A DNA stretch of 64,000 bases from Phycisphaerae bacterium (GCA_050115495.1 JASFQK010000009.1:64001-128000), one strand, 5' to 3'. Numbered from the stretch's first letter, positions 3-20,940 are shown. The notes: generated by a model from the sequence alone, not told the origin. Made by a program: numbers and translations.

Positions 3-3554
<3,552 letters not shown>

Positions 3555-3569
3555 GGGGGGAAGAGAAGA

Positions 3570-3600
3570 AGGCAACCAGGCAACCAGGCAACGAGGCAGA
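3570..3600. repeat. Short 8-bp tandem repeat (AGGCAACC x~3.5) downstream of secA
   Basis: aggcaacc aggcaacc aggcaacg aggcaga read directly from the sequence. Confidence 0.6.
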
Positions 3601-3757
3601 AGATTGCCTCGCGGGCACGTATTCCGTTCGGGGATCTGACGGGGCAACGAGAGATAGGTAGGCGTGGGCGGGGATGCGCGCATAATGTGCTTGGATCGGG
3701 CGCGTTTTTCCGGTGCGTAGACGGTGCCGGCTGTTCTGCACGTCCAGAGAGGAAGCC

Positions 3758-5068
3758 ATGCCTGCTCACTCCGCTCGAACGATCGCGCGTCGTCGTTGGC
3801 GCAGACTGTCGGCTGCCCTGCTCGTCGGGGCCGCCCTGCTGCCGTGCTGGGTCGGCTGCGACCGAAAGCCCGCCGACGGAGAGGTTCGTGTGGTGCGGCT
3901 GTGGGCGCATCAGGGGCAGGAGAAGGAGAACGCGGCGATGCGGGCCATCGCCGACGCGTTCAATGCGGAGCATGCTGCGCAGAAACTGCGCGTGGAGATC
4001 ACGTTCTATCCGGACCGGCAGTATGCGGACAAGGTGTCCATCGCCGCCTTCTCGAAGACGCTGCCCGACGTGCTGGACGTCGACGGCCCGTACGTGGGCC
4101 CCTGGGCCGCGGAGGGCATTCTCCAGCCGCTGGACGAGCTGATCGACGAGACGCTGCGGGCGGACCTGCTGTCCTCGCTGATCGAGCAGGGCACATATGC
4201 GGACCACCTGTACGCCGTCGGGGCGTTCGATTCGGCGTTGGTCGTCTACTACAACGCGGACGTGATCGAGCGGGCCGGCCTACACCCGCCCGAGCACGTC
4301 GCGGAGGCGTGGACCTGGGACGAGTTCGTGCAGGCGCTGGAGCAGGTGAAGCCGCTGGCGACCGTTCCGCTGTCGCTGCATATGGACGACGCCAGCAGCG
4401 AGTGGTTCACGTATGCGTTCTCGCCGCTGCTGTGGTCCAACGGCGGGCAACTCATCGATGATGGGCGGGCCGTCGGTGTGCTGGACAGTCCGGCCAACAT
4501 CGCGGCGCTGACGCGGTGGCAGCAGCTCTTCCGCGACGGTCTCGCCGAGCCGACGTCGACGAATCCGGACCCGTTCTCCGCCGGCCTGGCGGCGTTTGAC
4601 TGGACGGGGCATTGGATGCTACCGAGGTTCGAGCAGAAAGAGGGGCTGCGGTTCGGCGTTATGCCGCTGCCGAAGATGGGCGAGCGATTCGTCGCCGCCT
4701 CGGGGAGCTGGTGCTGGGGGATCTCGCGGGATTGCGGCGATCGGGCGGCGGCGTGGCAGGTGATCTCGTGGCTGCTCGATCCGGAGCACGGCATCAAACC
4801 AATCGTGCAGGCCAACGGGGCCGTGCCGGGACGGCGGAGTGCGTTCGCGCTCTTCCCCGAGTACGAGGAGCTGCCGCGGCAGCTTTTCCGCGAGCAGCTT
4901 GAGCAAGCGGCTCGCGCTCGGCCGCGGACGCCAGCGTATCTGACGCTCACGAGCGAGTTCGCCGCCGCTTTGCGAGACGTGGCCCGTGGGACGGATGTGG
5001 CCCGGCGGCTGAAGGAGGCCGCGGAGAACGTGCAGCGTACGCTGGACCGCCGGGGCGGTGACGGATAG
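3758..5068 (+). CDS. Sugar ABC transporter substrate-binding lipoprotein
   Basis: Signal peptide with lipobox-like WVGC; LPDVLDVDG, YYNADV, WTWDEF and GVMPLP motifs typical of CUT1 binding proteins; GAGGA before ATG 3758; followed by two permeases. Confidence 0.9.
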   Translation: MPAHSARTIARRRWRRLSAALLVGAALLPCWVGCDRKPADGEVRVVRLWAHQGQEKENAAMRAIADAFNAEHAAQKLRVEITFYPDRQYADKVSIAAFSKTLPDVLDVDGPYVGPWAAEGILQPLDELIDETLRADLLSSLIEQGTYADHLYAVGAFDSALVVYYNADVIERAGLHPPEHVAEAWTWDEFVQALEQVKPLATVPLSLHMDDASSEWFTYAFSPLLWSNGGQLIDDGRAVGVLDSPANIAALTRWQQLFRDGLAEPTSTNPDPFSAGLAAFDWTGHWMLPRFEQKEGLRFGVMPLPKMGERFVAASGSWCWGISRDCGDRAAAWQVISWLLDPEHGIKPIVQANGAVPGRRSAFALFPEYEELPRQLFREQLEQAARARPRTPAYLTLTSEFAAALRDVARGTDVARRLKEAAENVQRTLDRRGGDG

Positions 5069-5972
5069 ACCGCAACCCATGGCCGCGATGCCCCGCGAGA
5101 GACTGGTCGCCTGTCTGTTCGTCGCGCCGGCGACGGCGGTGCTCGGCGTGTTCGTCGCGTGGCCGGCGCTGTACATGGCCTGGGCCAGTCTGCACGAAGG
5201 GGCGTGGTCGCAGACGACGGGCCAGACGTTCGCGGGTCTGGCCAGCTACCGGGCCCTGCTCACCGACCGAGCCTTCGGTCAGGCCGCGGCCAACACGGCG
5301 TGGTTCACCGTGCTGGTCGTGCCGCTGCAAACGGCTCTAGCGCTCGCCTTCGCCGTCTGGACGAACCGCCCGGGCAAGGCCGTGCGATTCCTGCGGATGG
5401 CGGTCTTCGTGCCGACAACGCTCTCGCTGGCGGTGCTGAGCGTGGTCTGGAGCCTGCTGTACGCACCGGCGACGGCGACGGGGGCCGGGCTGTTCAACGG
5501 CTTGCTCAGCGGCGTCGGGCTACCAGTTCAACCGTTTCTGGCGAGCCCACGCCAGGCTCTGCTCGCGATCGTGGCGATGAGCGTCTGGCAGGGCGTCGGG
5601 CTGCAAATGATGGTGTTCCTCTCCGGGCTCCAGCAGATCCCGGAGCAGCTCTACGAGGCCGCTCGTCTTGACGGTGCCGGCCGCTGGCAGCAACTCCGCC
5701 ATATCACGCTGCCGGCCCTCGCTCCGACGACGCTGTTCGTCGTCATGATCACGACGATTTTTGCGTTGAAGCTGTTCGTGCAGCCGCTGCTCATGACCGG
5801 CGGCGGGCCGGAAGGCGCCACGCGCAGCGTCGTCCAATACGTCTACGAGGCGGCCTTTCACAGTCGTGACCTGAGTCTGGCTTGTGCGGCGGGTGTGGTG
5901 TTTCTCGTCGCCGTGCTGGTGATCGCGGCTGGGCAGCGCTATGCCGGCCGCCGGGCGGAGGACTGGCAATGA
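5058..5972 (+). CDS. Carbohydrate ABC transporter permease (MalF/UgpA-like)
   Basis: Multiple TM helices; EAA loop LYEAARLDGAGRWQQLRHITLP. Confidence 0.93.
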   Translation: MTDRPQPMAAMPRERLVACLFVAPATAVLGVFVAWPALYMAWASLHEGAWSQTTGQTFAGLASYRALLTDRAFGQAAANTAWFTVLVVPLQTALALAFAVWTNRPGKAVRFLRMAVFVPTTLSLAVLSVVWSLLYAPATATGAGLFNGLLSGVGLPVQPFLASPRQALLAIVAMSVWQGVGLQMMVFLSGLQQIPEQLYEAARLDGAGRWQQLRHITLPALAPTTLFVVMITTIFALKLFVQPLLMTGGGPEGATRSVVQYVYEAAFHSRDLSLACAAGVVFLVAVLVIAAGQRYAGRRAEDWQ

Positions 5973-6832
5973 GCCGCGGCAGGCGGATGGCGATTCGCTG
6001 GGCGGCGGCGCTCGTCGCCGTGGTCGTGGCCGTCCTGTATCTGACGCCGATCCTGTGGACCGCGGCCGCGTCGCTCAAGCCGGACGAGTTCATCCACCGT
6101 GACGTGGACTCACTGCGCAGCCTCGTGCCCGGCCCGACGACGCCGGACAACTACGCGGCGGCGGAGCGGCGGGGACAGGTGAGCGTCACGCTGGTCAACA
6201 CGTTCATCGTCGTGGTGGTCATCGCCGCCGGCGGACTGCTGATTAACGCCCCGGCGGCGTACGCGTTCGCCCGGATGCGTTTCCCGGGGCGGGACGCGCT
6301 GTTCCTGGCGTTCGTGGGGACGATCATCGTACCGCTGGAGGCGATCGTCATCCCGCTGTTCGTGACCGTGCAGGGTAGCCGCGGGTTGGAGAGCGTTCTG
6401 GGCGAGCGAACGTGGACGCTGGTCGCGCTGAGCGTCCCGTTTCTGGCCAAGGCGTTCAACGTGTTCCTGCTGCGGCAGGCCTTTCTTTCGTTGCCGCGAG
6501 CGCTCGAAGAGGCCGCGTTCATCGACGGGGCCGGCTGGTGGCGGGCGTTCTGGCGGGTCGGGCTGCCCAACGTGCGGCCGGCGCTGGTTACCGTCGTGCT
6601 GCTCGACTTCGTCATTCACTGGAACGACTTCCTCTGGCCGTTGGTCATCTGCCAGGATGAGAGCACGCGCACCGTGCAGATCGGCCTCGGCGCGTTCTTC
6701 ACCCAGCCGCCGGTGTCGTGGGGGGCGATCCTGGCGTACGCGGTGCTGATTACGCTGCCGGTGCTGCTCGTGTTTGCGGTGGGCCAGCGGTGGATCGTGC
6801 GTTCGCTGGCGGCGACGGGCGTGCGGGAATAG
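5969..6832 (+). CDS. Carbohydrate ABC transporter permease (MalG/UgpE-like)
   Basis: AAYAFARMRFPGR, LEEAAFIDGAG, WNDFLWPL; ATGA overlap with the upstream permease. Confidence 0.93.
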   Translation: MSRGRRMAIRWAAALVAVVVAVLYLTPILWTAAASLKPDEFIHRDVDSLRSLVPGPTTPDNYAAAERRGQVSVTLVNTFIVVVVIAAGGLLINAPAAYAFARMRFPGRDALFLAFVGTIIVPLEAIVIPLFVTVQGSRGLESVLGERTWTLVALSVPFLAKAFNVFLLRQAFLSLPRALEEAAFIDGAGWWRAFWRVGLPNVRPALVTVVLLDFVIHWNDFLWPLVICQDESTRTVQIGLGAFFTQPPVSWGAILAYAVLITLPVLLVFAVGQRWIVRSLAATGVRE

Positions 6833-7114
6833 TCGCCGTCATGCTCTGCAGCGTGCAGCGTCGCCCGCGGTAACCGCCTGTGGGTACTTGCGACTGTCGC
6901 TCAACCCGGCCAGAGCCAAACCGTCCTCTTGGCGCCGGTGGCCATCACGGTCGCCAGATGTCCAGAGTCTCTTGCTCCTTCTTCAGCGCATACTCAGAGC
7001 CGCCGCTGACACGGCCACGTCCCTGCCAGCTCCGGTAGTCCATAACTCGCCGCTGTCACTGCGCAGACCCCGTGCCGCTGGGCACGTCCAAGCATCTTGC
7101 GTGAGCCACGCGCT

Positions 7115-8449
7115 TCACGACGTCAGCGTGTCCATCCAGCGCTGGAGATGGGCCACACCCTCAAGGCCCGCCACGTCCACGAAACTCGTGATCCCATTGC
7201 CCAAGTCCGCAACCAGCTGCTCTTTCGACGCGGTGGCTGCGAACTGGTACTCAACGCGCTTGCGCTGCAGGTAGTGCCGCAAGCAGCGCATCTTTGCCTC
7301 GGTCGTCGGGAAGTCTATGCGTACGATGCCATGTCGGCGCCGGACGCTCTTGACCGTGCTATCGCCAAACAGAGCGAAGTTGTTCGCATCATTCGCCAGG
7401 ACCTGCTTGCAAACCTCACAAGCGCACACATTCTCATGAAACACAGCTGCGCTCTGAAGGTACCCTGCCGCTCTGAACATGGGCGCCGCGTCCTTGAATC
7501 GCACGCGTGCGTGCAACGGCGGGACGTAGTAGCGGGCAATCGGGATACCACCTCCTACTGGCACCGCCGGCCGAAACTCGCCGAACTCCGGAGCATGCGT
7601 CACGCCGGACAGGGCGCTCTTGCCAAGTACGCCGGCAGCCAGAATCGAGAAGTATCCGCCGTGGAGGTTGACCACCTCCCGGCGCCCTGCCTTTCGAAGC
7701 CGGCGAGCGAACCGCAGAAGGCCGGCGAGTTCAGGCTTGCTGGCTGTCTGTTCGTCGAGATTGTCCGCCCAGAGCAAGTAGCCGTCCGGGCTAGCCCTGC
7801 TCAGACCATCCGTGATGGAGTCTTGGATAGACTCGTCTAACAAGACGCCCTGGCTCACGAGAACAGCCGCAAACAGCTTCGAATCACCGCCCGGCGGGAC
7901 CAGCTCGCGCGCCCGTTCCGCCGCTGCAACACAGACTGGCAACCAATCAACGCAAGTAGTCTCTGTCAGGTAGAAATACGGAGCGACAATCGCATATGGA
8001 GGGAGATCGACCTCGTGGTCATCCAGGTACTTCGCCGTATCCGCGTTTCTCATGTAGCTACGAAGACTCTCACGCTGGAATGCCACACACCGGTCAGTGA
8101 ATCCATCCAAGACACGAGCGGCCTTCAGGTGCTTAGGCAAGAGCCTGCGTGCACCGACCAGCGTGTCTATGGGGCGTCCGTACACCTCCGCCAAGCCCCT
8201 GATGGAGGCCCTCGGCTCCCCTTCGGCGTTGCAGATGGCCTCCGGATCGTGCTGAAAGGCATGCGTCAGAGGATCGATGACATAGACAGCCTGTGCGGTC
8301 TTCTCCAACAAGAAAGCCGCCAGCCCAGCCGGCGCATGTTGTACCATGTTGGCGTTAATGACCACGCCGCGGTACGTTCCCTTCTCTGGATACTCGAAAT
8401 GCCGCTGCTCCGCAAATGTACTGAACATCATCCAATGGTCAATCGACAT
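7115..8449 (-). CDS. Hypothetical 444-aa protein, putative TGT/beta-protein-like TIM barrel with a CxCxxC...H zinc motif
   Basis: Long ORF with alternating beta/alpha pattern (GVVIN, YVIDP, YAIVAPY, FAAVLV, GYLLW, VVNLHGG, GVTH), then GGG..RYY.P, CACEVC and HYL. Start overlaps the upstream gene's stop. Confidence 0.7.
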   Translation of the reverse strand: MSIDHWMMFSTFAEQRHFEYPEKGTYRGVVINANMVQHAPAGLAAFLLEKTAQAVYVIDPLTHAFQHDPEAICNAEGEPRASIRGLAEVYGRPIDTLVGARRLLPKHLKAARVLDGFTDRCVAFQRESLRSYMRNADTAKYLDDHEVDLPPYAIVAPYFYLTETTCVDWLPVCVAAAERARELVPPGGDSKLFAAVLVSQGVLLDESIQDSITDGLSRASPDGYLLWADNLDEQTASKPELAGLLRFARRLRKAGRREVVNLHGGYFSILAAGVLGKSALSGVTHAPEFGEFRPAVPVGGGIPIARYYVPPLHARVRFKDAAPMFRAAGYLQSAAVFHENVCACEVCKQVLANDANNFALFGDSTVKSVRRRHGIVRIDFPTTEAKMRCLRHYLQRKRVEYQFAATASKEQLVADLGNGITSFVDVAGLEGVAHLQRWMDTLTS

Positions 8450-8873
8450 ACGAGATCGCCCTCATTGCGGCGGCCATGCGTCGCCGTTGCGGCGGCCAGA
8501 CCTTGAGATTCCGGCTCGGCTCAACCACCCATTCGCAGTCCCACGAAGTCGGGTCACACTGGATGAGCCCGTAGCCTTCTCCCCGCACTTGTTTCAGCAG
8601 GGCATCGGGCACCGAACGTAACGAGATTGCGATGCAGATGTAGTCGGCCACAACCTGATGTGCTCGGCACTGCTCAATCGCCCGTCGCCAATCGTGTCGC
8701 TTTGCCTCGACGAACGTCACCCATCGATTGCGAGTCGCCACAACATCCGCACTCTGTCCGAGATTCGGGACTTCAAGGCGGACGCGGTATCCCTGGTTTC
8801 TCAAGAAGCCGACCAGGCTGCCGACCACGTCTGCCTCCGTGGCCCTTACGGTCTGACTAGGTAATCTCCTCAT
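8439..8873 (-). CDS. PD-(D/E)XK nuclease-like protein (~144 aa)
   Basis: TEADV...RLEVP....ADVVA......FVEAK...W.RAIEQ follows the restriction-endonuclease-fold E...D...ExK pattern. Start taken at ATG 8873, overlapping the upstream gene. Confidence 0.75.
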   Translation of the reverse strand: MRRLPSQTVRATEADVVGSLVGFLRNQGYRVRLEVPNLGQSADVVATRNRWVTFVEAKRHDWRRAIEQCRAHQVVADYICIAISLRSVPDALLKQVRGEGYGLIQCDPTSWDCEWVVEPSRNLKVWPPQRRRMAAAMRAISYVD

Positions 8874-9351
8874 AGGTCTCCAGCCTGCATGAGGCCCAGT
8901 AAAGAAGAACAACAAGGCCAGTCTGGGCCGACAGAAGAATGATCCCCGCGGGCAGGGCCCATGGTCGAGCGTCAATCCACAACCATGACGCCAATGCGCC
9001 GCCGGCTCCGAGAATGATCGTCCCGAGTAGAGCCGTGTACGCAGAACGCACAACGAGCCGCAAGGTCTCCAGCCTGTGGAAGATCGCGAACAACCGAAAG
9101 GTCTCATCGGTTAGGTTGCCGACGAGGTCCGGCTCCTCCCGGCCATCGCCGCGCACCAAGTCCCCGTCGGGAAGCTGACGCACGTGCTGAAGGAGTGCCG
9201 CGTGCTTGACTGCCAATTGCTCAAGCAGGGCTTGCCGCCGTAGCTTGACCCTTGACCGGAAGCTGGCCTGCGATTCAATGAACGGCTTGAAGTACGTGGC
9301 GAGCGCCCCGACTATAATCGGGACTATGGAGGCGACCAATGATGGCCACAT
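8857..9351 (-). CDS. Hypothetical membrane protein (about 3 TM segments)
   Basis: Hydrophobic N-terminus WPSLVASIVPIIVGALATYF and two C-terminal hydrophobic helices; ATG 4 nt after the upstream stop. Confidence 0.7.
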   Translation of the reverse strand: MWPSLVASIVPIIVGALATYFKPFIESQASFRSRVKLRRQALLEQLAVKHAALLQHVRQLPDGDLVRGDGREEPDLVGNLTDETFRLFAIFHRLETLRLVVRSAYTALLGTIILGAGGALASWLWIDARPWALPAGIILLSAQTGLVVLLYWASCRLETYEEIT

Positions 9352-9355
9352 CGGA

Positions 9356-9952
9356 TCAGGTTGTGCCCCTGCGCCCAAGGACCTGCCCCTTGATTTTCGA
9401 CCTGGTGGTCTGGTCTTCGTAGTTCTCGTAGACGTATTTCAGCAAGGCACGAAGCGGAATCCTCTGAAGACGGCTCTTGAATTCGCGCATGAGACCTTTC
9501 TGCTCGACGGTCAGCAGGCCGTATAGGTCCGCAGCGAACGCCGCTCCCTTTGGCGAGAGGCGAAAGACTTGTTCGTCGTACTCGGAGACGGACGACTCGG
9601 CGGTATCCGCCCGCGACATCGCCAGCCAGCGCTCCCATTCCGCCGCACACTCGGGCAAGGTGTCTTCCTGAGAATCTTCTCGCTCGATGAACCCGTGCAA
9701 CTCGAAGAACGTCAGATCGTCATAGACGTCGCGAGAAAAGGGGCCGAAATCCCAAGCGAAGAATTGGTAGAAATTCTCACTGTCTATCCTGATGTTGGCA
9801 CGGAAGCGAACTAGAGCCTCTTCTCGGAAGAGAAACAGCATCTTCATAAGCCGGGTGCGGCCCGTGATTGGCTCATTGGTCTGCTCGGAGCGTCCCGGCG
9901 AATACAGCAGAAGGAGCAAGATATCCCGTCGATTGTCGATGCGGCGCGCCAC
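9356..9952 (-). CDS. SocA/Panacea (DUF4065)/YwgA-like protein, putative antitoxin or adaptor
   Basis: ILLLLLY...ITGRTRLMKMLFL...YQFFAWDFGPFSRDVYDDL...FRLSPKG...LLKYVY motifs; GGAGG RBS 10 nt before GTG 9952. Confidence 0.7.
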   Translation of the reverse strand: MARRIDNRRDILLLLLYSPGRSEQTNEPITGRTRLMKMLFLFREEALVRFRANIRIDSENFYQFFAWDFGPFSRDVYDDLTFFELHGFIEREDSQEDTLPECAAEWERWLAMSRADTAESSVSEYDEQVFRLSPKGAAFAADLYGLLTVEQKGLMREFKSRLQRIPLRALLKYVYENYEDQTTRSKIKGQVLGRRGTT

Positions 9953-10584
9953 GACGTGCCAACCTCCATACTGCGCGAGCCAACAACACCGGCACCAACG
10001 CGGGGGCTTCGGCGCTACACACAGCCTGCGCACCGCGCGGGGGCAACTTGGCCGACCGTCGACTGCGAATAGTACCGCGGGACTGGCACCAAGTCCAAGG
10101 CGTCTTCCGCAGGGCCTTGACGGCCTGTGAAAGAACGCTCGACCCGGACGCGGCCCCAAACCGACTCTCGGCGTGTCAGAACCAGTCCCCGCGAAGGAGG
10201 CTCGCGGCCTCACTTGAACGATCTGGAGCGGCGCGCGTGGGACCGTGTTGGCACACGGCCTTGCCCACAGACAAGCCACGGGCTGAATCGCACACCGTGG
10301 CTGGGTAGCCCCAGGCGGCCTTCCGCGTGGCCCGTGCCTGGAGGTCCGGCATGGGTCGATGCCGGCATTCGCGCTGTCGGCCGGCCCGGTAGTCTGGCGC
10401 AGCGTCGCCCGGGCATATGCTCAGAGACAGCGGCGCGTCAGGACGATCCTGGCGCCGCACTGCGTGGACCGCAGGCCATACACAGAGACGGGCGGCCAGC
10501 GTGATGCTGACCGCCCGCGAGTTCTAAGACAACAAGCGCCGGCCGCCGGGCTTCAGTGCCGGGCGGGCGGAGGTCGCCGGCCGA

Positions 10585-11511
10585 TCAGCAGCCGCGCCGG
10601 CGAGAGAACGCCAGGGCCAGGCCACTCACGACGAGCAGCATGGTGCCCGGCTCGGGAACGGAGCAGGACAAGGCAATCTGGTCGTTGCCGCAACTGGCGG
10701 CGGTGTGCAACGCGATGTCGAAGGTGGCATCGGTGGAGAGCTGGCTGAGGTCGATGGACCAGGTCTCGAGGTACCAGGTGCGGTTACTGTCGATGATCGT
10801 GGCGTAGGTCAGGCCGGCGTCTCCCAGGTCGTCGCCGCCCTCGGCGAAGGCCCGCATGTCCAGGCCTACGGGGGCATTGCTCGCGGTGTAGGCGCCCTGG
10901 CCACCGGTGAGGGTGACATCGCCGTCGCCGAGCAGGGCCACGAGGTGACCTTCGAGGCTGGTGTCGCCCGTGCCGCCGAAGAGGTGGAACTCCTGGGCGT
11001 CGGCGAAGTGGCCGCCGTTCAGGGAGATCGGGTCGCCTTCGCTGTTGCGGGCCCAGGTGTTGAGCAAGGCGAAGTGGCTGATGCCGTCACTGTCGGAGAC
11101 GGTGACGAAGAGGTCGCCCTCACCGTACCAGGCGCCCCAGCCGTTGTGGTAGTAGCCGGCGTGGGGATCGAGGGCGGTGGCCAACTGGAGAACGAGCGCA
11201 CCGTCGACGACCTGGGCGCCGAGGACGCCCTGGTCAAACGCCAGGCCGGTCGAACCGCCGGGGCTGGGCACCTGGCCGACGCCGCTGGGGTAGGAAACGC
11301 GGTCAGGTCCGAGTTCGGGGAAGTAGTTGCTGATGGTCGGGCCGGAGAGGGGATGGCCCTGAGCCGTGTCGTTGTAGTAAGAAGACTTGAGTCCGGAAAC
11401 GCCGATTTCCCAGGTGGCGTCGAAGCCGGAGAAGGCGTTGACCAGGTCCGCCTGCACGAGGCAGGTGCCGAGGGTAGCGACAACGAGAACGCTCAGAAGG
11501 TTGATACGCAC
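10585..11511 (-). CDS. PEP-CTERM sorting-domain protein
   Basis: Signal peptide; C-terminal SCGND...VPEPGTMLLVVSGLALAFSRRR. Confidence 0.92.
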   Translation of the reverse strand: MRINLLSVLVVATLGTCLVQADLVNAFSGFDATWEIGVSGLKSSYYNDTAQGHPLSGPTISNYFPELGPDRVSYPSGVGQVPSPGGSTGLAFDQGVLGAQVVDGALVLQLATALDPHAGYYHNGWGAWYGEGDLFVTVSDSDGISHFALLNTWARNSEGDPISLNGGHFADAQEFHLFGGTGDTSLEGHLVALLGDGDVTLTGGQGAYTASNAPVGLDMRAFAEGGDDLGDAGLTYATIIDSNRTWYLETWSIDLSQLSTDATFDIALHTAASCGNDQIALSCSVPEPGTMLLVVSGLALAFSRRRGC

Positions 11512-11842
11512 ACCAAGCTCCTTTCCCTATCCTGCGGCGATGTCTCGGCGAATCCCAGACACCAGCCGAAGGGTGGGTCGAGCCTGGCTGGCTGATGGCC
11601 TAGTGCCCAAACGATAGGCTCGACGCCGGCGGCATTTCCACCGCCCCCCGCAGAAAAAGTGGCAATCAATCGGCGGAAAGTCGCGGCATAAACGACAGCA
11701 AAACGAGCGTTCTCATAACAGCAGGGTTTGCGCCGGCGCGCGCGGGGATGCGGAAGGCGACGGCGGACATGCGCGGGTGGAAAGGCTGTTACGCGGACGG
11801 TTCGAAATTCTGCGTCATTGGGCGACGGTGAGTGGTTTCCGG

Positions 11843-12706
11843 TCAGCCGCGCTCCAGCACCACCGATGTGACGATGAATGCGTCGCAGATCGCGTGCACC
11901 GCCACCGCCGGCCAGACGCTACGGGTCCGGTAAGTCAGCACGCCCATCACCCAGCCGAACGTGAAGGTGAGTCCGACGCCGACCCAGCCGTTGGGAAACC
12001 CGCTGCGATAGTGCATGGTCCCGAACAGGGCCGCCTGAAAGAAGATGGCCGGCCAGACGCCGGCGACGCGTCGCGCCTCGCTCTGGAGGACAACGCGGGC
12101 CAGGAACTCCTCGAAGAGGGCGTTCGTTATCGCCACCGCTGGCACAGCCGCCAGCAGCGCGGCCGTCGACCACGGCGGCAGCATCCGGGCGAGGGCGAGT
12201 GGCCGTTCGGCAATGAAGAAGTGCCACCAGGCGAGCCCGGCGATGCTGAGCAGAGCGAAGGGAATGGTCAGCGCCCAGGCTCGGCGCGTCGTCGGCCAGC
12301 GCAGCGAGAGCTCGGTACACGAACGACCGCGCAGGAAGCGGTCGAAGGCGATCAGGGCAACGGCAATGAGCAGTTCCGGAAACGGTGTGGGCAGGTACCA
12401 GTACACACCGAAGTACTGCACCGCCAGCCGAAGCGCCCGGTAGAGCAGGACGATGTCGACCAGCTCCACGAGCGGTACCGGGAGACGTACGTAACGTACG
12501 AGGACGCTCGCCGCCGCCAGGAGCATGAACATCTGGAGTGCCCGGCCGGCGATGATATCACCGGTGGCGATCAGGGCAGTCAGGGCAATGAGCCCGATGA
12601 CGCCGACCACGGTGGAGGCTGGCCGGCGGTGCCGATTCGCCGGATTGCCCTGCGGGGCTGGTGGTGCCATCACGTCCTTCGTTCGCGGCCGCTCAGCGAC
12701 GGGCAC
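11843..12706 (-). CDS. CPBP (CAAX/Abi) family intramembrane metalloprotease
   Basis: EEFLAR, LFGTMH and HAICD motifs in a multi-TM protein. Confidence 0.88.
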   Translation of the reverse strand: MPVAERPRTKDVMAPPAPQGNPANRHRRPASTVVGVIGLIALTALIATGDIIAGRALQMFMLLAAASVLVRYVRLPVPLVELVDIVLLYRALRLAVQYFGVYWYLPTPFPELLIAVALIAFDRFLRGRSCTELSLRWPTTRRAWALTIPFALLSIAGLAWWHFFIAERPLALARMLPPWSTAALLAAVPAVAITNALFEEFLARVVLQSEARRVAGVWPAIFFQAALFGTMHYRSGFPNGWVGVGLTFTFGWVMGVLTYRTRSVWPAVAVHAICDAFIVTSVVLERG

Positions 12707-12722
12707 ACCGCCGCCGGCGGCT

Positions 12723-13091
12723 CTATCGCTTTGGGAGCAGCGATTTGAGCCATTCGGCCACGGTGACTTCCTTCATGTCGCGGAATTCGCCGGCGTCGAA
12801 GAACCAGCCGTAGCAGACCGTGCAGCTTTCGAAGTGAATGTGAGGCTGCCGGTGGACCGCCATCTGGATCATCGGCTCCTGGCAGACGGGGCAGAGGCGC
12901 GGGCCTTTGACCTCCCGTGCGGCAGATGCCACGGTCGGTCCCTGATCAATGGCCTCGGAGCCGGGGATCTTCCGGAGCTTCTCGGCTTCGAGGGCGTCGA
13001 ACCAGAGCCCGCCACACGCCGGGCAGCGGTCGACCTCGATGCTGGCGTACGTCACCTTCTCCATCGCGGTGCTGCATTTCGGGCAATTCAC
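12723..13091 (-). CDS. Tandem zf-TFIIB-like zinc-ribbon protein
   Basis: CPKC...DRCPACGGLWFDA.E and CPVC...ESCTVCYGWFFDAGE. Confidence 0.85.
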   Translation of the reverse strand: MNCPKCSTAMEKVTYASIEVDRCPACGGLWFDALEAEKLRKIPGSEAIDQGPTVASAAREVKGPRLCPVCQEPMIQMAVHRQPHIHFESCTVCYGWFFDAGEFRDMKEVTVAEWLKSLLPKR

Positions 13092-13129
13092 GGGCGACCT
13101 CCAGAACAGCTTTCATGGTCGAACATTCG

Positions 13130-15535
13130 TTACTCGTCGGTGTCGGCCGGGGCGGTCGAGGGCATCCGATCCTCGCAGACTTCGATGGCGCGGTCGAGCA
13201 GCTCGTCGCGGCCGGCGCGGACGCCGGCGAGCGTGCGGTGTGCGGGGACGGTCGGCTGGATGCCGACGCCATGGTGCGTCGAATCGTCGTGCTTGAGAAC
13301 GCGCATGCCGGTCCACGTGACCCGGTACCCGCCGGGCAGGTTGAAGGGGTTGACGTTGCCGTTCGTGCCGGCGGTCGGCTCACCGACGATCTCCGCGAGC
13401 CGGTAATGCTCGACGATGCCCATGCACGTCTCGGCGTAACTGATCGCCCGGCCATCGGTGATGAAGACAACGTTCTTCGGCAAGCGCGGTTTGGCGGGCT
13501 TCACTGGCCAGCCGGACCTGCGCCACGACCACTGCTGGCGGTCGGGGCGGGTCACGATCGGAACACACCAATTCGCGGACTGGATGGTCTCGTCGGTGAG
13601 ATGGCCGAGGACAGTCGGCGGCAGGCGACGGGGATAACCGCGCAGGTCGAAGATGATGCCGCGCGCCTGGGCCAGGTCGGGCAGGGCCGCCTGAAATTCG
13701 TCGTTGTCGACGCGGTCCATGTCGACGTACCACAGGCCGGGCTGGATCTCGGCGATCTTGTCCGGCCGCGTGCTGTGCTCGGCCAACCAGAACCCCCGGC
13801 CGGCGAAGACGAGTCGAACGGTGCGCAGTGGCTCGTCGCCGCGCTGGATGCCCAGTTCGCACTCCTGCCCATACGCCCCCCGCGACGACTCCTCACGAAT
13901 GCGCCAGCGCAGCCACTGCGGCGTGGCGGCCGAAATCAACGACTCGTGAGCGGCGATGACCTCAGCGGCGGGCCGGCCGTCAATCGTGGTGACGATGTCA
14001 CCGGGCTTGAGGTCCTGGCCCGCCGCCACTTCGGGATCGGCGGCAAGGATGACCAGTTGGTTCTCGACAATGTCCCAGGAAAGCGGCAGCCAACCCACGC
14101 TCTCCAGCATGCGACCGCTCACACGCCCATGTCCGTCGTGCAGGGCCGCGACGAGCCGCCGTAGCGTGCCGAGGAAGGCTCGTTCGTCCGGATCGGTGGC
14201 GGCGGACTTCAAGGCCGTGCGCAGCACGGCGGGCCAATCGGTCTCGACGACGTCGAAGTAGGGATAGAAGTGCTGGAAGACGTTCCAGGCCAGGATAACG
14301 TCGGCCAGGCGGACGGCCCGGTCGTTCGCCGACTGGCGACGATGCACGCCCGGAGCTTCCTCGATCGTAGCGGGCGCGGCGGCGGTGGCGCCATCGGCGG
14401 GCCCCGTGGCGGACGCGTGCGGAACCGTGCCGCCGACGCTCTTGTACACGGCCATGGGCACGATGCAGGTAACATCGCCGGGCAGATCGACGACGAGCGG
14501 TTCGTCCGGCTCGGGCAGCTCCGGGGTGTCATCCCGGCCGAAGAGCCTTCCGAAGACGTTGCTCACGCGGTGGACGCTGACGCGTTCGCTGTGGTAGACC
14601 CCGCCGGGCCGGTCCACGCCGAGCCCGCAGCCCTCGTGCCGCCAGGCGATGGCGCGGTATCCGTCGGTGTCGGGCGGCTCGGCGACGGCGGGCGGCAACT
14701 CATAGGGCTGTCCGGTGGGGACCATCTGCACGGTCGGGGCCACGTCGTGCACGACCTCGGTCAGCGCGGCGGCCAGTGCTCCCGGCGAATCGGCGGGTTC
14801 GACCGTGCGCACGGCGTCGATGGCGATGCTCGGCCAGTCGGCCGCGGCGGCCTCGTCGCTCGGGTGGAAGTAACGAACGTAGCCGAGCAGGCGCGCCAGG
14901 GCGACGAGGTTGTCGAGGCCGCGGTCGGACAGCGCTCGCGGCTCGCCGTGTACGGCCGCGCACTCCACGACGGCCAGGGCCAGGTCGTCCACCCATACCG
15001 TTCCGCCGCCGCTCAGCGAAGCCCCGAAGAGCAAGCGCTCGGCTTCCGCCGGGACTTCGAGCGTGATCTCGCACTTCGTCCAGGGGGTAGTGTGCTGGAG
15101 GCCGTACGACAACATGTTGTCGTAGATGAGCGGCCGCTCGGTATCCGCGCCGTCGATGCGGAGGAACAGGCCGGCGTAGCCGTCGTCCACGCCGTCCAGC
15201 CGCAGCCAACCAGTCAGCCGGATGCATTTGCCGCGAAAGTCGACGGCGGGCAGGATCTGCCGCAGCCGGCCGTATTCTCGGAGGTCGGCCGGCACCCCCT
15301 GCCGGCTCAGGCGGGCGCTGCGCTGGCCGCTGTGTTTGACGTCGGCATCGGCGACGACGCTGTACGCTGGGCTGACGGGGACGCCCAGTAGCGCTTCCGG
15401 CTCGTTCCACCCCGGCAGGGCCTCCCCTTCGCCCGTCTCGAATCCGCCATTTCGCACGCCCTGGCCACAGGCTGCGCCAGCCAGCAGCAGGACGAGCCAC
15501 ATCCCCCAACCCTGCCCGCGCAAAGTCCGACCCAT
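13130..15535 (-). CDS. Secreted S41 family peptidase with an N-terminal carbohydrate-binding-like domain and PDZ
   Basis: Signal peptide; NGGFE...VWVDDL jelly-roll; GYVRYFHPS; LHDGH; IIFDLRGYP, AISYAE, VGEPTAGTNG, GVGIQP; AAGGAGG before ATG 15535. Confidence 0.88.
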   Translation of the reverse strand: MGRTLRGQGWGMWLVLLLAGAACGQGVRNGGFETGEGEALPGWNEPEALLGVPVSPAYSVVADADVKHSGQRSARLSRQGVPADLREYGRLRQILPAVDFRGKCIRLTGWLRLDGVDDGYAGLFLRIDGADTERPLIYDNMLSYGLQHTTPWTKCEITLEVPAEAERLLFGASLSGGGTVWVDDLALAVVECAAVHGEPRALSDRGLDNLVALARLLGYVRYFHPSDEAAAADWPSIAIDAVRTVEPADSPGALAAALTEVVHDVAPTVQMVPTGQPYELPPAVAEPPDTDGYRAIAWRHEGCGLGVDRPGGVYHSERVSVHRVSNVFGRLFGRDDTPELPEPDEPLVVDLPGDVTCIVPMAVYKSVGGTVPHASATGPADGATAAAPATIEEAPGVHRRQSANDRAVRLADVILAWNVFQHFYPYFDVVETDWPAVLRTALKSAATDPDERAFLGTLRRLVAALHDGHGRVSGRMLESVGWLPLSWDIVENQLVILAADPEVAAGQDLKPGDIVTTIDGRPAAEVIAAHESLISAATPQWLRWRIREESSRGAYGQECELGIQRGDEPLRTVRLVFAGRGFWLAEHSTRPDKIAEIQPGLWYVDMDRVDNDEFQAALPDLAQARGIIFDLRGYPRRLPPTVLGHLTDETIQSANWCVPIVTRPDRQQWSWRRSGWPVKPAKPRLPKNVVFITDGRAISYAETCMGIVEHYRLAEIVGEPTAGTNGNVNPFNLPGGYRVTWTGMRVLKHDDSTHHGVGIQPTVPAHRTLAGVRAGRDELLDRAIEVCEDRMPSTAPADTDE

Positions 15536-15625
15536 CGCCGTACCCTCCTTCGGCAATAACAGGGCGCACAACATCGCGCCGGTCATGCGGCTCGCGTTCC
15601 CGGCGACACGCCGGGCGCGAGGCCG

Positions 15626-16180
15626 CTACTCGACGTGTACTTCGAGCTTCTCGCGGCCGGCCAGGCGGGCGGCGTAGAAGGCGCCGATCAGCCCGCCGCC
15701 CAGGGCGAACAACGTGTCCGAGCCACCCTCGACGAGCATCTCGGGGATGTAGCGGACGAACATCGGCCAATCCACGGGTATGCCCTCCTCCGCCGACGCC
15801 TGGCTCCAGCCGTACGCGTAGACCATCACGTTGCCCGCCACCACGGAAACGACAGTCGCGACGATCGAAATGAACTGGACGAGCCACCCGCCCTTGCCGG
15901 CCGCCTTCGCCGTCGCCACGCCGATCGCGACACCGATGCCGATGGCCAGCAGCCAGAACATCATTTCGAACTTGATCGCGACGAAGGCCCAGATTGCCGC
16001 ACCGACCAGGCCGGTCACAGCAGCGGCCACGATGGCCAGCGTCACCCGCGTCGGCCTGGCGTCGTAGGCCGCCTGGGCTTCCTCGCCGGCCGCCTGCCAC
16101 ATGCAGGACCTGCCCCCTGCTCGCCACGAGTCTACCACGCGGGAGGGTATGAGCAACAGGGATTGCTCGGCGGGCGGCAC
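15626..16180 (-). CDS. Hypothetical membrane protein (start uncertain)
   Basis: About four Gly/Ala-rich TM helices; collinear with neighbouring genes. Confidence 0.6.
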   Translation of the reverse strand: MPPAEQSLLLIPSRVVDSWRAGGRSCMWQAAGEEAQAAYDARPTRVTLAIVAAAVTGLVGAAIWAFVAIKFEMMFWLLAIGIGVAIGVATAKAAGKGGWLVQFISIVATVVSVVAGNVMVYAYGWSQASAEEGIPVDWPMFVRYIPEMLVEGGSDTLFALGGGLIGAFYAARLAGREKLEVHVE

Positions 16181-16227
16181 CCCGAGAGGGTGATTTCGAT
16201 GAATGACTGGCGATCTGAGGCGGCCGG

Positions 16228-17208
16228 CTAGCGCTCGGCGACCCAGGCCAGCTCTTCCTGGCGATGCGTGCGGCTACGCTCGTGGGACCGCTTGCGAACG
16301 GCACGTTCGAGCGCGTCGAGCACGATCGTGTCGTAGCCCGCTTGCGGAGCCGCCCGCAGGCGGCGCAGCGCCACCGCGGAAGCCTCCGGCGTAGCCACCT
16401 CGTCCGCACCGAGTGCATCATCGTAGGCCCGCGCGGCGCGGATGATCTGGGCCCCCATCGGCTGCAGGACGGTCTGCACGGGCGGGGCCTGGGCGTGCGT
16501 GAGGAAGTCGCTCGCCGCATCGTCCTGGCCGGCCAACAGCGGCAGCGCACCGTCGAGCACCGAGGCAAGCGAATGCACCAATTCGGTTCCGCAGAACGTG
16601 TGCCGGCTCGGCTTGTCCTCGAGGGCGTCGAAGGCCTTGCTGAGCACCTGCGTCGTGATCTCGAGGTTGGTCAGGTCGTGCAGGAGCGCCGCCACGCGGA
16701 TGTCGTCCACCTGCTTCGGCGGCAGACCCAGCTCTTCGGCGATGACTTGGCTCAGCTCGGCAACGCGGACGGAGCGGGCCTTGACGTGCAGGTTGCCACC
16801 CTGGAGATACTTGGAGAGCACTTCGACGACACCGACGTAAGCTCTGTGCAACTCGCGGACGGTCGTGGCCCGGGCGTCACAGAGCGTCCCGACCAGAATC
16901 GCCACGAGCCCGAGGGCGCTGCCCCAGATCGTCAGCATGAGCCCCACCATCAGCGGCGAGTCGTAGGCGGCGAAGCCCGTCGCCGTCGACGTGGTGGCGA
17001 TCGTCACCACGAGCACGCAGAGCAGGGCCAGCACGCCCGTTGTGGTGCGGCCCAGGTAATAGCCGCTCAGCACGATCGGCAGGTAGAACAGGTTCAGCAC
17101 GACGCCCTTGTACGGGCCCATCATCGCGAAGAGCGCCGAGGCCCCGATCGTGGTGAGGACCAGGAACAGCTCGAGCGCCCGTCGATCCTTCGGTATTGGA
17201 CCTGGCAT
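16228..17208 (-). CDS. Membrane-anchored degenerate HD-GYP domain protein
   Basis: N-terminal TMs; SVRVAELS...IRVAALLHDL present, but no HHExxDGxGYP. Confidence 0.8.
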   Translation of the reverse strand: MPGPIPKDRRALELFLVLTTIGASALFAMMGPYKGVVLNLFYLPIVLSGYYLGRTTTGVLALLCVLVVTIATTSTATGFAAYDSPLMVGLMLTIWGSALGLVAILVGTLCDARATTVRELHRAYVGVVEVLSKYLQGGNLHVKARSVRVAELSQVIAEELGLPPKQVDDIRVAALLHDLTNLEITTQVLSKAFDALEDKPSRHTFCGTELVHSLASVLDGALPLLAGQDDAASDFLTHAQAPPVQTVLQPMGAQIIRAARAYDDALGADEVATPEASAVALRRLRAAPQAGYDTIVLDALERAVRKRSHERSRTHRQEELAWVAER

Positions 17209-20855: not shown

Positions 20856-20940
20856 TGCGGCTGACTGGAGTCGAACCAGCACGGGCTATTCGCCCACAAG
20901 GACCTGAACCTTGCGCGTCTGCCAATTCCGCCACAGCCGC
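20856..20940 (-). tRNA. tRNA-Leu (anticodon CAG), CCA not encoded
   Basis: Reverse complement GCGGCTG TGGCGGAATTGGCAGACGCG CAAGG TTCAGGT CCTTG, long variable arm, GCTGGTTCGACTCCAGT CAGCCGC A. Confidence 0.96.

Follow-up and report, generated by a model that had tools for sequence, protein, structure and literature searches.

A four-gene cassette pairing a divergent TGT-like protein with a PD-(D/E)XK nuclease fold and an exchangeable, putative effector slot: a candidate defense system in a Phycisphaerae bacterium

The 64,000-nucleotide stretch of Phycisphaerae bacterium DNA analyzed here (GCA_050115495.1, JASFQK010000009.1:64001-128000; hereafter the window) carries four consecutive minus-strand genes, A to D, that together form a candidate defense cassette. 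Gene A (9952-9356, 198 amino acids) is an open frame with a GTG start and the first gene of the operon. It is followed by gene B (9351-8857, 164 amino acids), which encodes a membrane protein in a variable, putative effector slot, by gene C (8873-8439, 144 amino acids), with a predicted PD-(D/E)XK nuclease fold, and by gene D (8449-7115, 444 amino acids), the signature gene of the cassette, which encodes a predicted divergent TIM barrel of the TGT superfamily. Listing and translation of the open reading frames (ORFs) reproduced exactly the coordinates of an initial annotation of this DNA, with a 4-nt gap between A and B, a 17-nt overlap between B and C and an 11-nt overlap between C and D. The gap and overlaps indicate a single operon in which B, C and D are translationally coupled, and C is probably both co-transcribed and translationally coupled with D. 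A GGAGG motif lies 9 nt 5' of the GTG of gene A. The ATG start of gene D is supported by the conservation of its N-terminus, where M1, H5 and W6 are nearly invariant in 26 homologs.

The composition of the cassette is foreign to its host. Its G+C content is 0.598, versus 0.671 for the whole window, and none of 1110 segments of the same size that do not overlap the cassette is as G+C-poor (mean, 0.675; standard deviation, 0.018; minimum, 0.624), which bears out the earlier remark that these genes are richer in A/T than their flanks. At third codon positions, the G+C content is 0.68 to 0.73 in A to D versus 0.85 to 0.92 in six flanking genes. The resulting low-G+C island (7000 to 10000, no strand assigned) coincides with the cassette and is a sign of horizontal acquisition. 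The DNA similarity shared with the sole relative that carries the cassette (G027, of another family in the same order) is confined to window positions 7135-9959. We read the cassette as horizontally acquired.

The fold of the gene D product was explored using an AlphaFold2 model (pLDDT, 95.4; pTM, 0.93), which was compared exhaustively with 48,161 PDB representatives by VIA-align. The five top matches all belong to the TGT superfamily: ArcTGT ranks first (1iq8; Z, 21.9; 303 aligned residues; root mean square deviation, 3.2), followed by TGT (3unt; Z, 20.0), QTRT2 (6fv5; Z, 17.9), DpdA (7ui4; Z, 16.6) and Cap10 (9ntn_B; Z, 13.9), and unrelated TIM barrels reach a Z of at most 13.7. Among ESM Atlas structures, the nearest family outside that of D itself is the PF01702 TGT family (TM scores, 0.61/0.71). 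Sequence comparisons gave a different picture. D has no meaningful match among Pfam, NCBIfam, PADLOC or PHROGs models, and the same holds for 52 diverse homologs of D, none of which hits PF01702. A D profile retrieved nothing from PDB sequences (best E, 1), and alignment of the D family with a 7-sequence TGT alignment by hhalign gave a probability of 2% in local mode and 0.07% when forced to be global. A Foldseek search of viral structures in BFVD returned nothing at an E of ≤1e-3. The D family is large, with 687 representatives of clusters at 50% identity (E ≤ 1e-3) and at least 350 matches in a 90%-clustered collection, and it reaches Planctomycetota, Myxococcota, Pseudomonadota, Actinomycetota, Bacillota and archaea.

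D shares with TGTs a zinc motif, CxCxxC...H, that is conserved among the 52 homologs (C342 in 51, C344 in 50, C347 in 51 and H392 in 52), with H392 as the presumed fourth zinc ligand. Other residues are kept to the same degree, namely, D59, Y158 and Y308 in all 52, E291 and R293 in 51 and H285 in 50. In the model, each of the invariant polar residues of the alignment (D59, Y158, E233, H285, E291, R293, Y308, H313 and R315) is placed immediately beyond a barrel strand, at its C-terminal end. D looks like an enzyme, since this is the canonical active-site face of a TIM barrel and the TGT zinc motif is kept. Catalysis in TGTs depends on an aspartate nucleophile, which forms a covalent ribosyl intermediate, and on a general-acid aspartate; the preprint on Cap10 (bioRxiv 10.1101/2025.04.06.647259) supports part of this picture. 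The invariant D59, within the sequence IDPLTHAFQ, follows the second barrel strand, and we take it to resemble the aspartate of the TDSGGFQ motif present in the host's own Tgt. The strand that bears the nucleophile aspartate of host Tgt, in FDCVLPTR, ends in D in His285 (50 of 52 homologs) when the two are mapped by strand topology. A zinc module that is kept beside an active-site residue that apparently differs makes a new substrate or a new chemistry plausible. D is not the housekeeping enzyme, since the host has canonical Tgt and QueC elsewhere: a PF01702 search of the host genome found the canonical tgt only, on another contig, and the sole clear match to QueC likewise lies on another contig.

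One of the structural neighbors of D bears directly on its probable role. Cap10 is the TGT-family protein of the anti-phage type IV CBASS; it is reported to act alongside a CD-NTase and Cap9, a QueC-like protein, to bind protein and to have lost both its zinc site and the surface used for binding tRNA (bioRxiv 10.1101/2025.04.06.647259). Since D keeps the zinc module of nucleic-acid-binding TGTs that is lost in protein-binding Cap10, D is likely to be a sensor of, or an enzyme acting on, a DNA or RNA base.

For gene C, the AlphaFold2 model (pLDDT, 92.2) has the topology H-E-E-E-H-E-H-E, which contains the alpha-beta-beta-beta-alpha-beta core of PD-(D/E)XK nucleases. All those of its ten top structural matches that have a named function are PD-(D/E)XK nucleases (Z, 14.7 to 7.5). 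VIA-align scores include 14.7 for 3dnx, 11.9 for the type IIS enzyme PaqCI (8em1), 10.6 for AF1548 and 10.3 for the XisH-like 2okf, and further down, 9.0 for NucS (2vld), 9.0 for Can2 and 5.9 for Hjc. The catalytic D...ExK motif is preserved across 31 family members, with E56, K58 and Q68 invariant and E34 and D43 present in at least 90%. A profile of C gave only weak matches to PDB sequences (UPF0102, E of 0.023; Hjc, E of 0.16), and C matches no PADLOC model. The modeled folds of C and D are thus those first named for them, and not unrelated housekeeping folds. A complex prediction for D with C (score, 0.00; mark, 0.32) says nothing either way.

Gene A had been described as SocA/Panacea-like, and this holds as a likeness that falls short of the family threshold. 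PF13274 (SocA_Panacea) is matched at an E of ≤0.01 by 19 of 29 members of the A family (best E, 4.4e-5), and A itself scores 20.1 bits (E, 1.3e-3), below the cut-off of 25.7. The E value against the NCBIfam SocA_antitoxin model is 0.087. PADLOC PDC-M19A, a profile of 294 positions, is matched with an E of 1.1e-10 over positions 4 to 75, and the matched portion reaches no further than position 130. Of the neighboring clusters of A in the ESM Atlas, one holds PF13274 in 21% and PadR in 15% of its members and another holds PF13274 in 20%; a profile of A found nothing among PDB sequences. Judged from sequence, A is probably a Panacea-like protein of winged helix-turn-helix (wHTH)-like type, and it would act as a Panacea-type regulator or adaptor.

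The gene B product shows, in a Kyte-Doolittle plot, three hydrophobic segments (approximately residues 1-25, 106-126 and 131-155) around a charged helical middle of about 80 amino acids, and it belongs to no family in the four libraries searched (Pfam, NCBIfam, PADLOC and PHROGs). B diverges far faster than A, C and D. At locus L003, for example, identity is 60% for A, 35% for B, 51% for C and 56% for D.

Conservation of the cassette as a unit was assessed at 67 metagenome loci, two named genome loci and the locus of one relative, where homologs of A, B and C were located by tblastn. Three loci with a different gene order were set aside from the counts, which include near-duplicates (L027/28/29, L044/45 and L005/L008) and are therefore not all independent. 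Of the 52 loci whose upstream DNA is long enough, 51 have gene C immediately before D, and the remaining one (L070) is a short fragment; all 40 loci that could be assessed for A carry it upstream of D. In 37 of these 40, the slot between A and C is occupied by an ORF of 150 to 205 amino acids that has two or more hydrophobic segments; two of the remaining slots have one long hydrophobic segment, and L072 has no slot. The same order recurs in dozens of unrelated contigs, which shows that it does not arise by chance. Cassettes were also found in Planctomycetota and, with unrelated flanks, in a Myxococcota metagenome-assembled genome (MAG) and in a gammaproteobacterial MAG. Moreover, a complete A-B-C-D set lies at 4405-7233 of pSI-1 (NC_010494.1; L104), a mobilizable plasmid of Arthrobacter sp. 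AK-1, beside a relaxase. It consists of four consecutive RefSeq genes labeled "hypothetical protein," with products of 184, 200, 148 and 409 amino acids; the hhalign probability is 99.8 for A and 96.1 for C, and the B-like protein has the same layout of three hydrophobic segments. Every cassette copy inspected is annotated as "hypothetical protein." The four genes therefore do co-occur elsewhere, across several phyla and on a plasmid.

The composition of the fourth position is variable. The most distant loci, with a D about 29% identical, lack the membrane gene and have a SIR2-like gene immediately behind D, in the order D-SIR2-A-C (L065, L066 and L069) or A-C-D-SIR2 (L072). The SIR2_2 family (PF13289) is matched above its cut-off in L072 (39.2 bits) and L069 (25.2 bits) and below it in L065 (20.5 bits), and the variant SIR2 proteins match the PADLOC Aga_SIR2 and SIR2 models with E values of 1e-10 to 1e-13. 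One locus has A-C-D only, beside a tyrosine integrase (L092), and two have a longer transmembrane (TM) protein of 263 to 273 amino acids in the slot (L093 and L095). In L094, a D homolog is followed by a 220-amino-acid C homolog, beside a ResIII gene; the apparently kinase-like N-terminus of this D homolog has no Pfam match. Fusions of D to a kinase are known from ESM Atlas structure rows alone, as clusters of Bacillota proteins of 665 to 683 amino acids with an N-terminal Ser/Thr kinase and a D-like remainder (TM score, 0.74 by query). The set conserved across these variants defines a core of A, C and D (C and D at minimum) with an exchangeable fourth position. The four-part architecture first proposed thus recurs, with A, C and D as its invariant unit and a membrane slot that can be exchanged for SIR2 or a longer TM protein or be absent. 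Likewise, of the two candidates initially put forward as the effector, B is the likelier killing component, since its slot is the one exchanged, and C is part of the conserved core.

The position of A before B recalls an addiction module. Panacea-domain proteins neutralize membrane-disrupting toxins with C-terminal TM helices, and the arrangement of PanA upstream of a small TM toxin is reported as validated for three PanAT pairs (PMC8832971). A would then be a PanA-type antitoxin and B a membrane-depolarizing PanT toxin, with C and D a separate pair that travels along. The Panacea-like A indeed immediately precedes a small protein whose TM segments are C-terminal, and copies occur on a plasmid and beside integrases or recombinases. 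We nevertheless consider this explanation unlikely. All four genes travel together across phyla with overlapping reading frames, the unit comprises three to four genes rather than two and the Panacea score of A is below threshold. A also stays beside C, and with D, at the loci that lack B or have another gene in its place (L072, L092, L065, L066 and L069), and it is conserved like C and D while B diverges much faster. The slow evolution of A together with its persistence beside C without B argues against a simple A-B toxin-antitoxin pair.

The cassette is accessory, with a rare and patchy distribution. It was found in 2 of 41 genomes among the relatives, in 6 of 401 sampled genomes of the same phylum and in 2 of 401 from the phylum to which the Myxococcota carrier (G442) belongs. 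No relative was found by tblastn against 50,697 phage records or by scanning viral contigs with two peptide patterns. Such rarity is hard to reconcile with an ordinary cellular role, in which the genes would form a niche operon for nucleic acid modification or repair with no function in conflict. TGT-fold enzymes are mainly tRNA-modifying, small PD-(D/E)XK proteins include repair nucleases (NucS, Z of 9.0; Hjc, Z of 5.9) and at half of the loci surveyed the neighbors are housekeeping or unannotated genes, all of which would suit such a role. The foreign composition, the plasmid-borne copy, the SIR2 variants and a host that already has Tgt speak against it, and it appears very improbable.

The genes around other copies were surveyed with Pfam at 24 of 25 chosen loci, covering 146 of 151 flanking ORFs, with no background control. 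Clear restriction, abortive infection (Abi) or mobile-element genes lie within 5 kb in 9 of the 24 loci. These are type III restriction-modification genes (L037 and L049), MmeI (L016), Mrr (L014) and AbiJ with IS1595 (L030), as well as recombinases (L022 and L031) and phage ANT/DUF3987 and AAA_25 genes (L034 and L004). In L065, the cassette is part of a low-G+C island (3149-12412) that comprises a SIR2-like gene, AbiH (PF14253; E, 1e-51), the D-SIR2-A-C genes and an 805-amino-acid UvrD/GajB-like helicase, and in L069 it directly follows a PDC-S01 gene. The Myxococcota copy (L004) lies between an AAA_25 primase/helicase-like gene with a small AlpA-like ORF and a 1532-amino-acid RHS-repeat protein (2104-4334 and 12113-16711), a context that suggests an integrated element or a polymorphic-toxin neighborhood.

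Comparison with known systems supports the initial statement that this architecture is not a named one. No full match exists in PADLOC-DB v2 (2023 version), where B, C and D match no model and A matches only PDC-M19A, in part, and no published description of the gene combination was found in a literature search with little coverage of subscription journals. The likeness to TGTs (bacterial TGT, ArcTGT and QTRT1/2; PF01702) extends over the TIM barrel and the C-terminal zinc subdomain (303 to 314 aligned residues) and the conserved zinc motif. D differs from them in matching no PF01702 model, in having, by topology, a His at the position of the Asp nucleophile (FDCV in host Tgt) and in residing in a mobile cassette with a nuclease, whereas TGT is a single housekeeping gene. 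Type IV CBASS is an anti-phage system that has recruited a TGT-family protein, Cap10, to which D is structurally close (Z of 13.9 to 9ntn_B), but D keeps the zinc motif that Cap10 lacks, and homologs of the CD-NTase and of QueC are absent from the cassette. Judged by these comparisons, D falls outside PF01702, and the cassette is neither Dpd, type IV CBASS, two-gene PanAT nor PDC-M19.

The Dpd system deserves separate consideration. DpdA is reported to be a TGT-fold protein in a DNA-level conflict system (PMC10164549), and D aligns with 7ui4 with a Z of 16.6. The cassette differs from Dpd in having only four genes, none of them an ATPase or DpdC-like, and in its partners, which are Panacea-like, PD-(D/E)XK and TM or SIR2 proteins; neither A to D nor the variant proteins of L065 and L072 match any PADLOC Dpd model. 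The resemblance raises the idea of a restriction-modification-like pair, in which D would mark self DNA or tRNA with a 7-deazaguanine-type base from the host queuosine pathway and C would cut unmarked DNA, with A as a controller-type wHTH regulator and B as an accessory. DpdA, a DNA preQ0 insertase, is among the nearest structures of D, and C and D are the tightest pair of the cassette, with overlapping genes that are adjacent in all but one of the assessable loci. The host has QueC and Tgt, so that preQ0 and preQ1 should be available, and PadR-type regulators occur among the ESM Atlas neighbor clusters of A. D also keeps the zinc motif of nucleic-acid-binding TGTs, which protein-binding Cap10 is reported to lack (bioRxiv 10.1101/2025.04.06.647259). 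Against this idea, the cassette is linked neither to a gene for deazaguanine biosynthesis nor to a partner resembling DpdB or DpdC, its proteins match no PADLOC Dpd model and the presumed nucleophile position holds His and not Asp, by strand topology. Exchangeable SIR2 and membrane modules are typical of abortive infection and not of restriction-modification, and no phage-encoded relatives appeared among the phage records or the viral contigs scanned. We therefore regard a restriction-modification-like role as improbable.

We lean instead, on balance, towards reading the cassette as a so far unnamed defense system, directed against phages or mobile DNA, with A, C and D as its core and a swappable effector, a role deduced from context. 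This reading is favored because the gene order is conserved, effectors are exchanged, the distribution is patchy and mobile and some of the neighbors are defense genes. It also draws on the enzyme-like features of D, the catalytic motif kept in C, the separate housekeeping Tgt of the host, the reported neutralization of membrane-disrupting toxins by Panacea-domain proteins (PMC8832971) and the precedent of Cap10, a TGT-family protein at work in a defense system. Exchange of effectors around a constant core is characteristic of defense systems. In Thoeris, short prokaryotic Argonaute systems and CBASS, for example, the part that senses is conserved and the part that kills can be either a SIR2 or a TM module. 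The cassette resembles them in its constant core and interchangeable SIR2 or TM effectors, and differs in that its core of Panacea-like, PD-(D/E)XK and TGT-like proteins matches none of their sensors.

Several observations weigh against this reading or against parts of it. In its own genome, the cassette is an isolated insertion outside any defense island, and 12 of the 24 loci in the neighbor survey, which had no background control, have housekeeping or unannotated neighbors, with 3 more ambiguous. The kinship of D with TGTs is visible by structure, through the model, and not by sequence, and a Foldseek search of D against the PDB was ambiguous, returning mixed TIM barrels with E values of 1.1e-3 or higher. 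With a His at the position of the Asp nucleophile in the modeled barrel, TGT-type chemistry may not apply to D. The score of A for PF13274 lies below the family cut-off, and A changes at the slow pace of C and D, in contrast to the rapidly evolving B, a pattern that fits poorly with A as the dedicated antitoxin of B. Finally, distant relatives of D occur without A and C, so that the D family is not tied to a single system. In genome G474, the genes after a D homolog encode an AAA+ protein with sigma-54-interaction and wHTH domains and a 976-amino-acid dynamin-like GTPase, with no A or C, and this locus may represent a separate system that makes use of the same TGT-like family. The D homolog of this locus (L112; G474:C138, 6038-11640) has 412 amino acids, is distant and has a Cys at the position of His285.

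A defense mechanism can be outlined in which each step, including which protein senses, is proposed from the predicted folds and from analogy. D would flip a base into a pocket at the top of the barrel, as TGT, ArcTGT and DpdA do, and would recognize or alter a feature of the invading DNA or RNA, possibly a modified guanine. C would cut or hold the same nucleic acid. A would silence the effector (or the nuclease), or repress the operon, until the event at D and C. B would then be released and would collapse the membrane potential so that the infection is aborted, and in the SIR2 variants NAD+ depletion would take the place of membrane collapse.

A more specific version of the defense reading, possible though short of probable, is that D represents a new functional branch of the TGT superfamily, a base-flipping immune sensor or editor of nucleic acids in which the aspartate nucleophile has been replaced. 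The targets that D could in that case recognize or excise would be hypermodified bases, for instance of the 7-deazaguanine type, in phage DNA or in a phage or host tRNA. Together with nuclease C and A as an adaptor of Panacea-like type, D would activate suicide effectors that can stand in for one another (the membrane protein, SIR2 or a fused kinase). This would be the first immune system built on nucleic acid recognition by the TGT fold, possibly with a new nucleobase chemistry. The broader defense reading, if true, would mean that a widespread defense system has been wholly missed by current annotation and that the TGT fold of the queuosine pathway has been recruited into immunity for a third independent time, after DpdA and Cap10. 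At 2.8 kb, the cassette is small as well as self-contained, and plasmid-borne and SIR2 versions of it exist, which makes these ideas directly testable, and the pSI-1 copy is a possible culturable source.

Transcription of the cassette was approached through metatranscriptomes and signal scans. One wetland metatranscriptome run (X3) contains two contigs, of 151 and 194 nt, that are at least 99% identical to the inside of gene D and map to window positions 7688-7838 and 7976-8169, one of them with a C>A difference at 8103. They hint weakly at transcription, since RNA libraries can contain DNA. A promoter scan gave a single promoter-like site, equal to the mean of shuffled sequences, and a terminator scan gave 6 terminator-like sites versus 2.8 ± 2.0 in shuffles, none of them at the 3' end of the cassette.

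The surroundings of the cassette agree with the initial placement between an ABC transporter and a PEP-CTERM gene, both supported by Pfam matches. On one flank lies SBP_bac_8, followed by two BPD_transp_1 permeases, and on the other a PEP-CTERM protein (PF07589, 23.5 bits versus a cut-off of 20.7), beyond which come an Rce1-like protease, a zinc-ribbon protein and an S41 peptidase. An 8-kb DNA search for an empty insertion site in 26 relatives found the ABC transporter and PEP-CTERM flanks on separate contigs, from which the site cannot be reconstructed. A 21-nt inverted repeat (7045-7065 and 10418-10438, 86% complementary) encloses the cassette and its 630-bp G+C-rich upstream spacer. Pairs of this kind number 13 in 4.3 kb, and this one could be due to chance or be a remnant of the ends of an inserted element. 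Elsewhere in the window, a SecA gene with a C-terminal CxCx8CH zinc motif stands at the window start (24-3554), and a tRNA-Leu(CAG) gene (20856-20940) is found not next to the cassette but 11 kb away.

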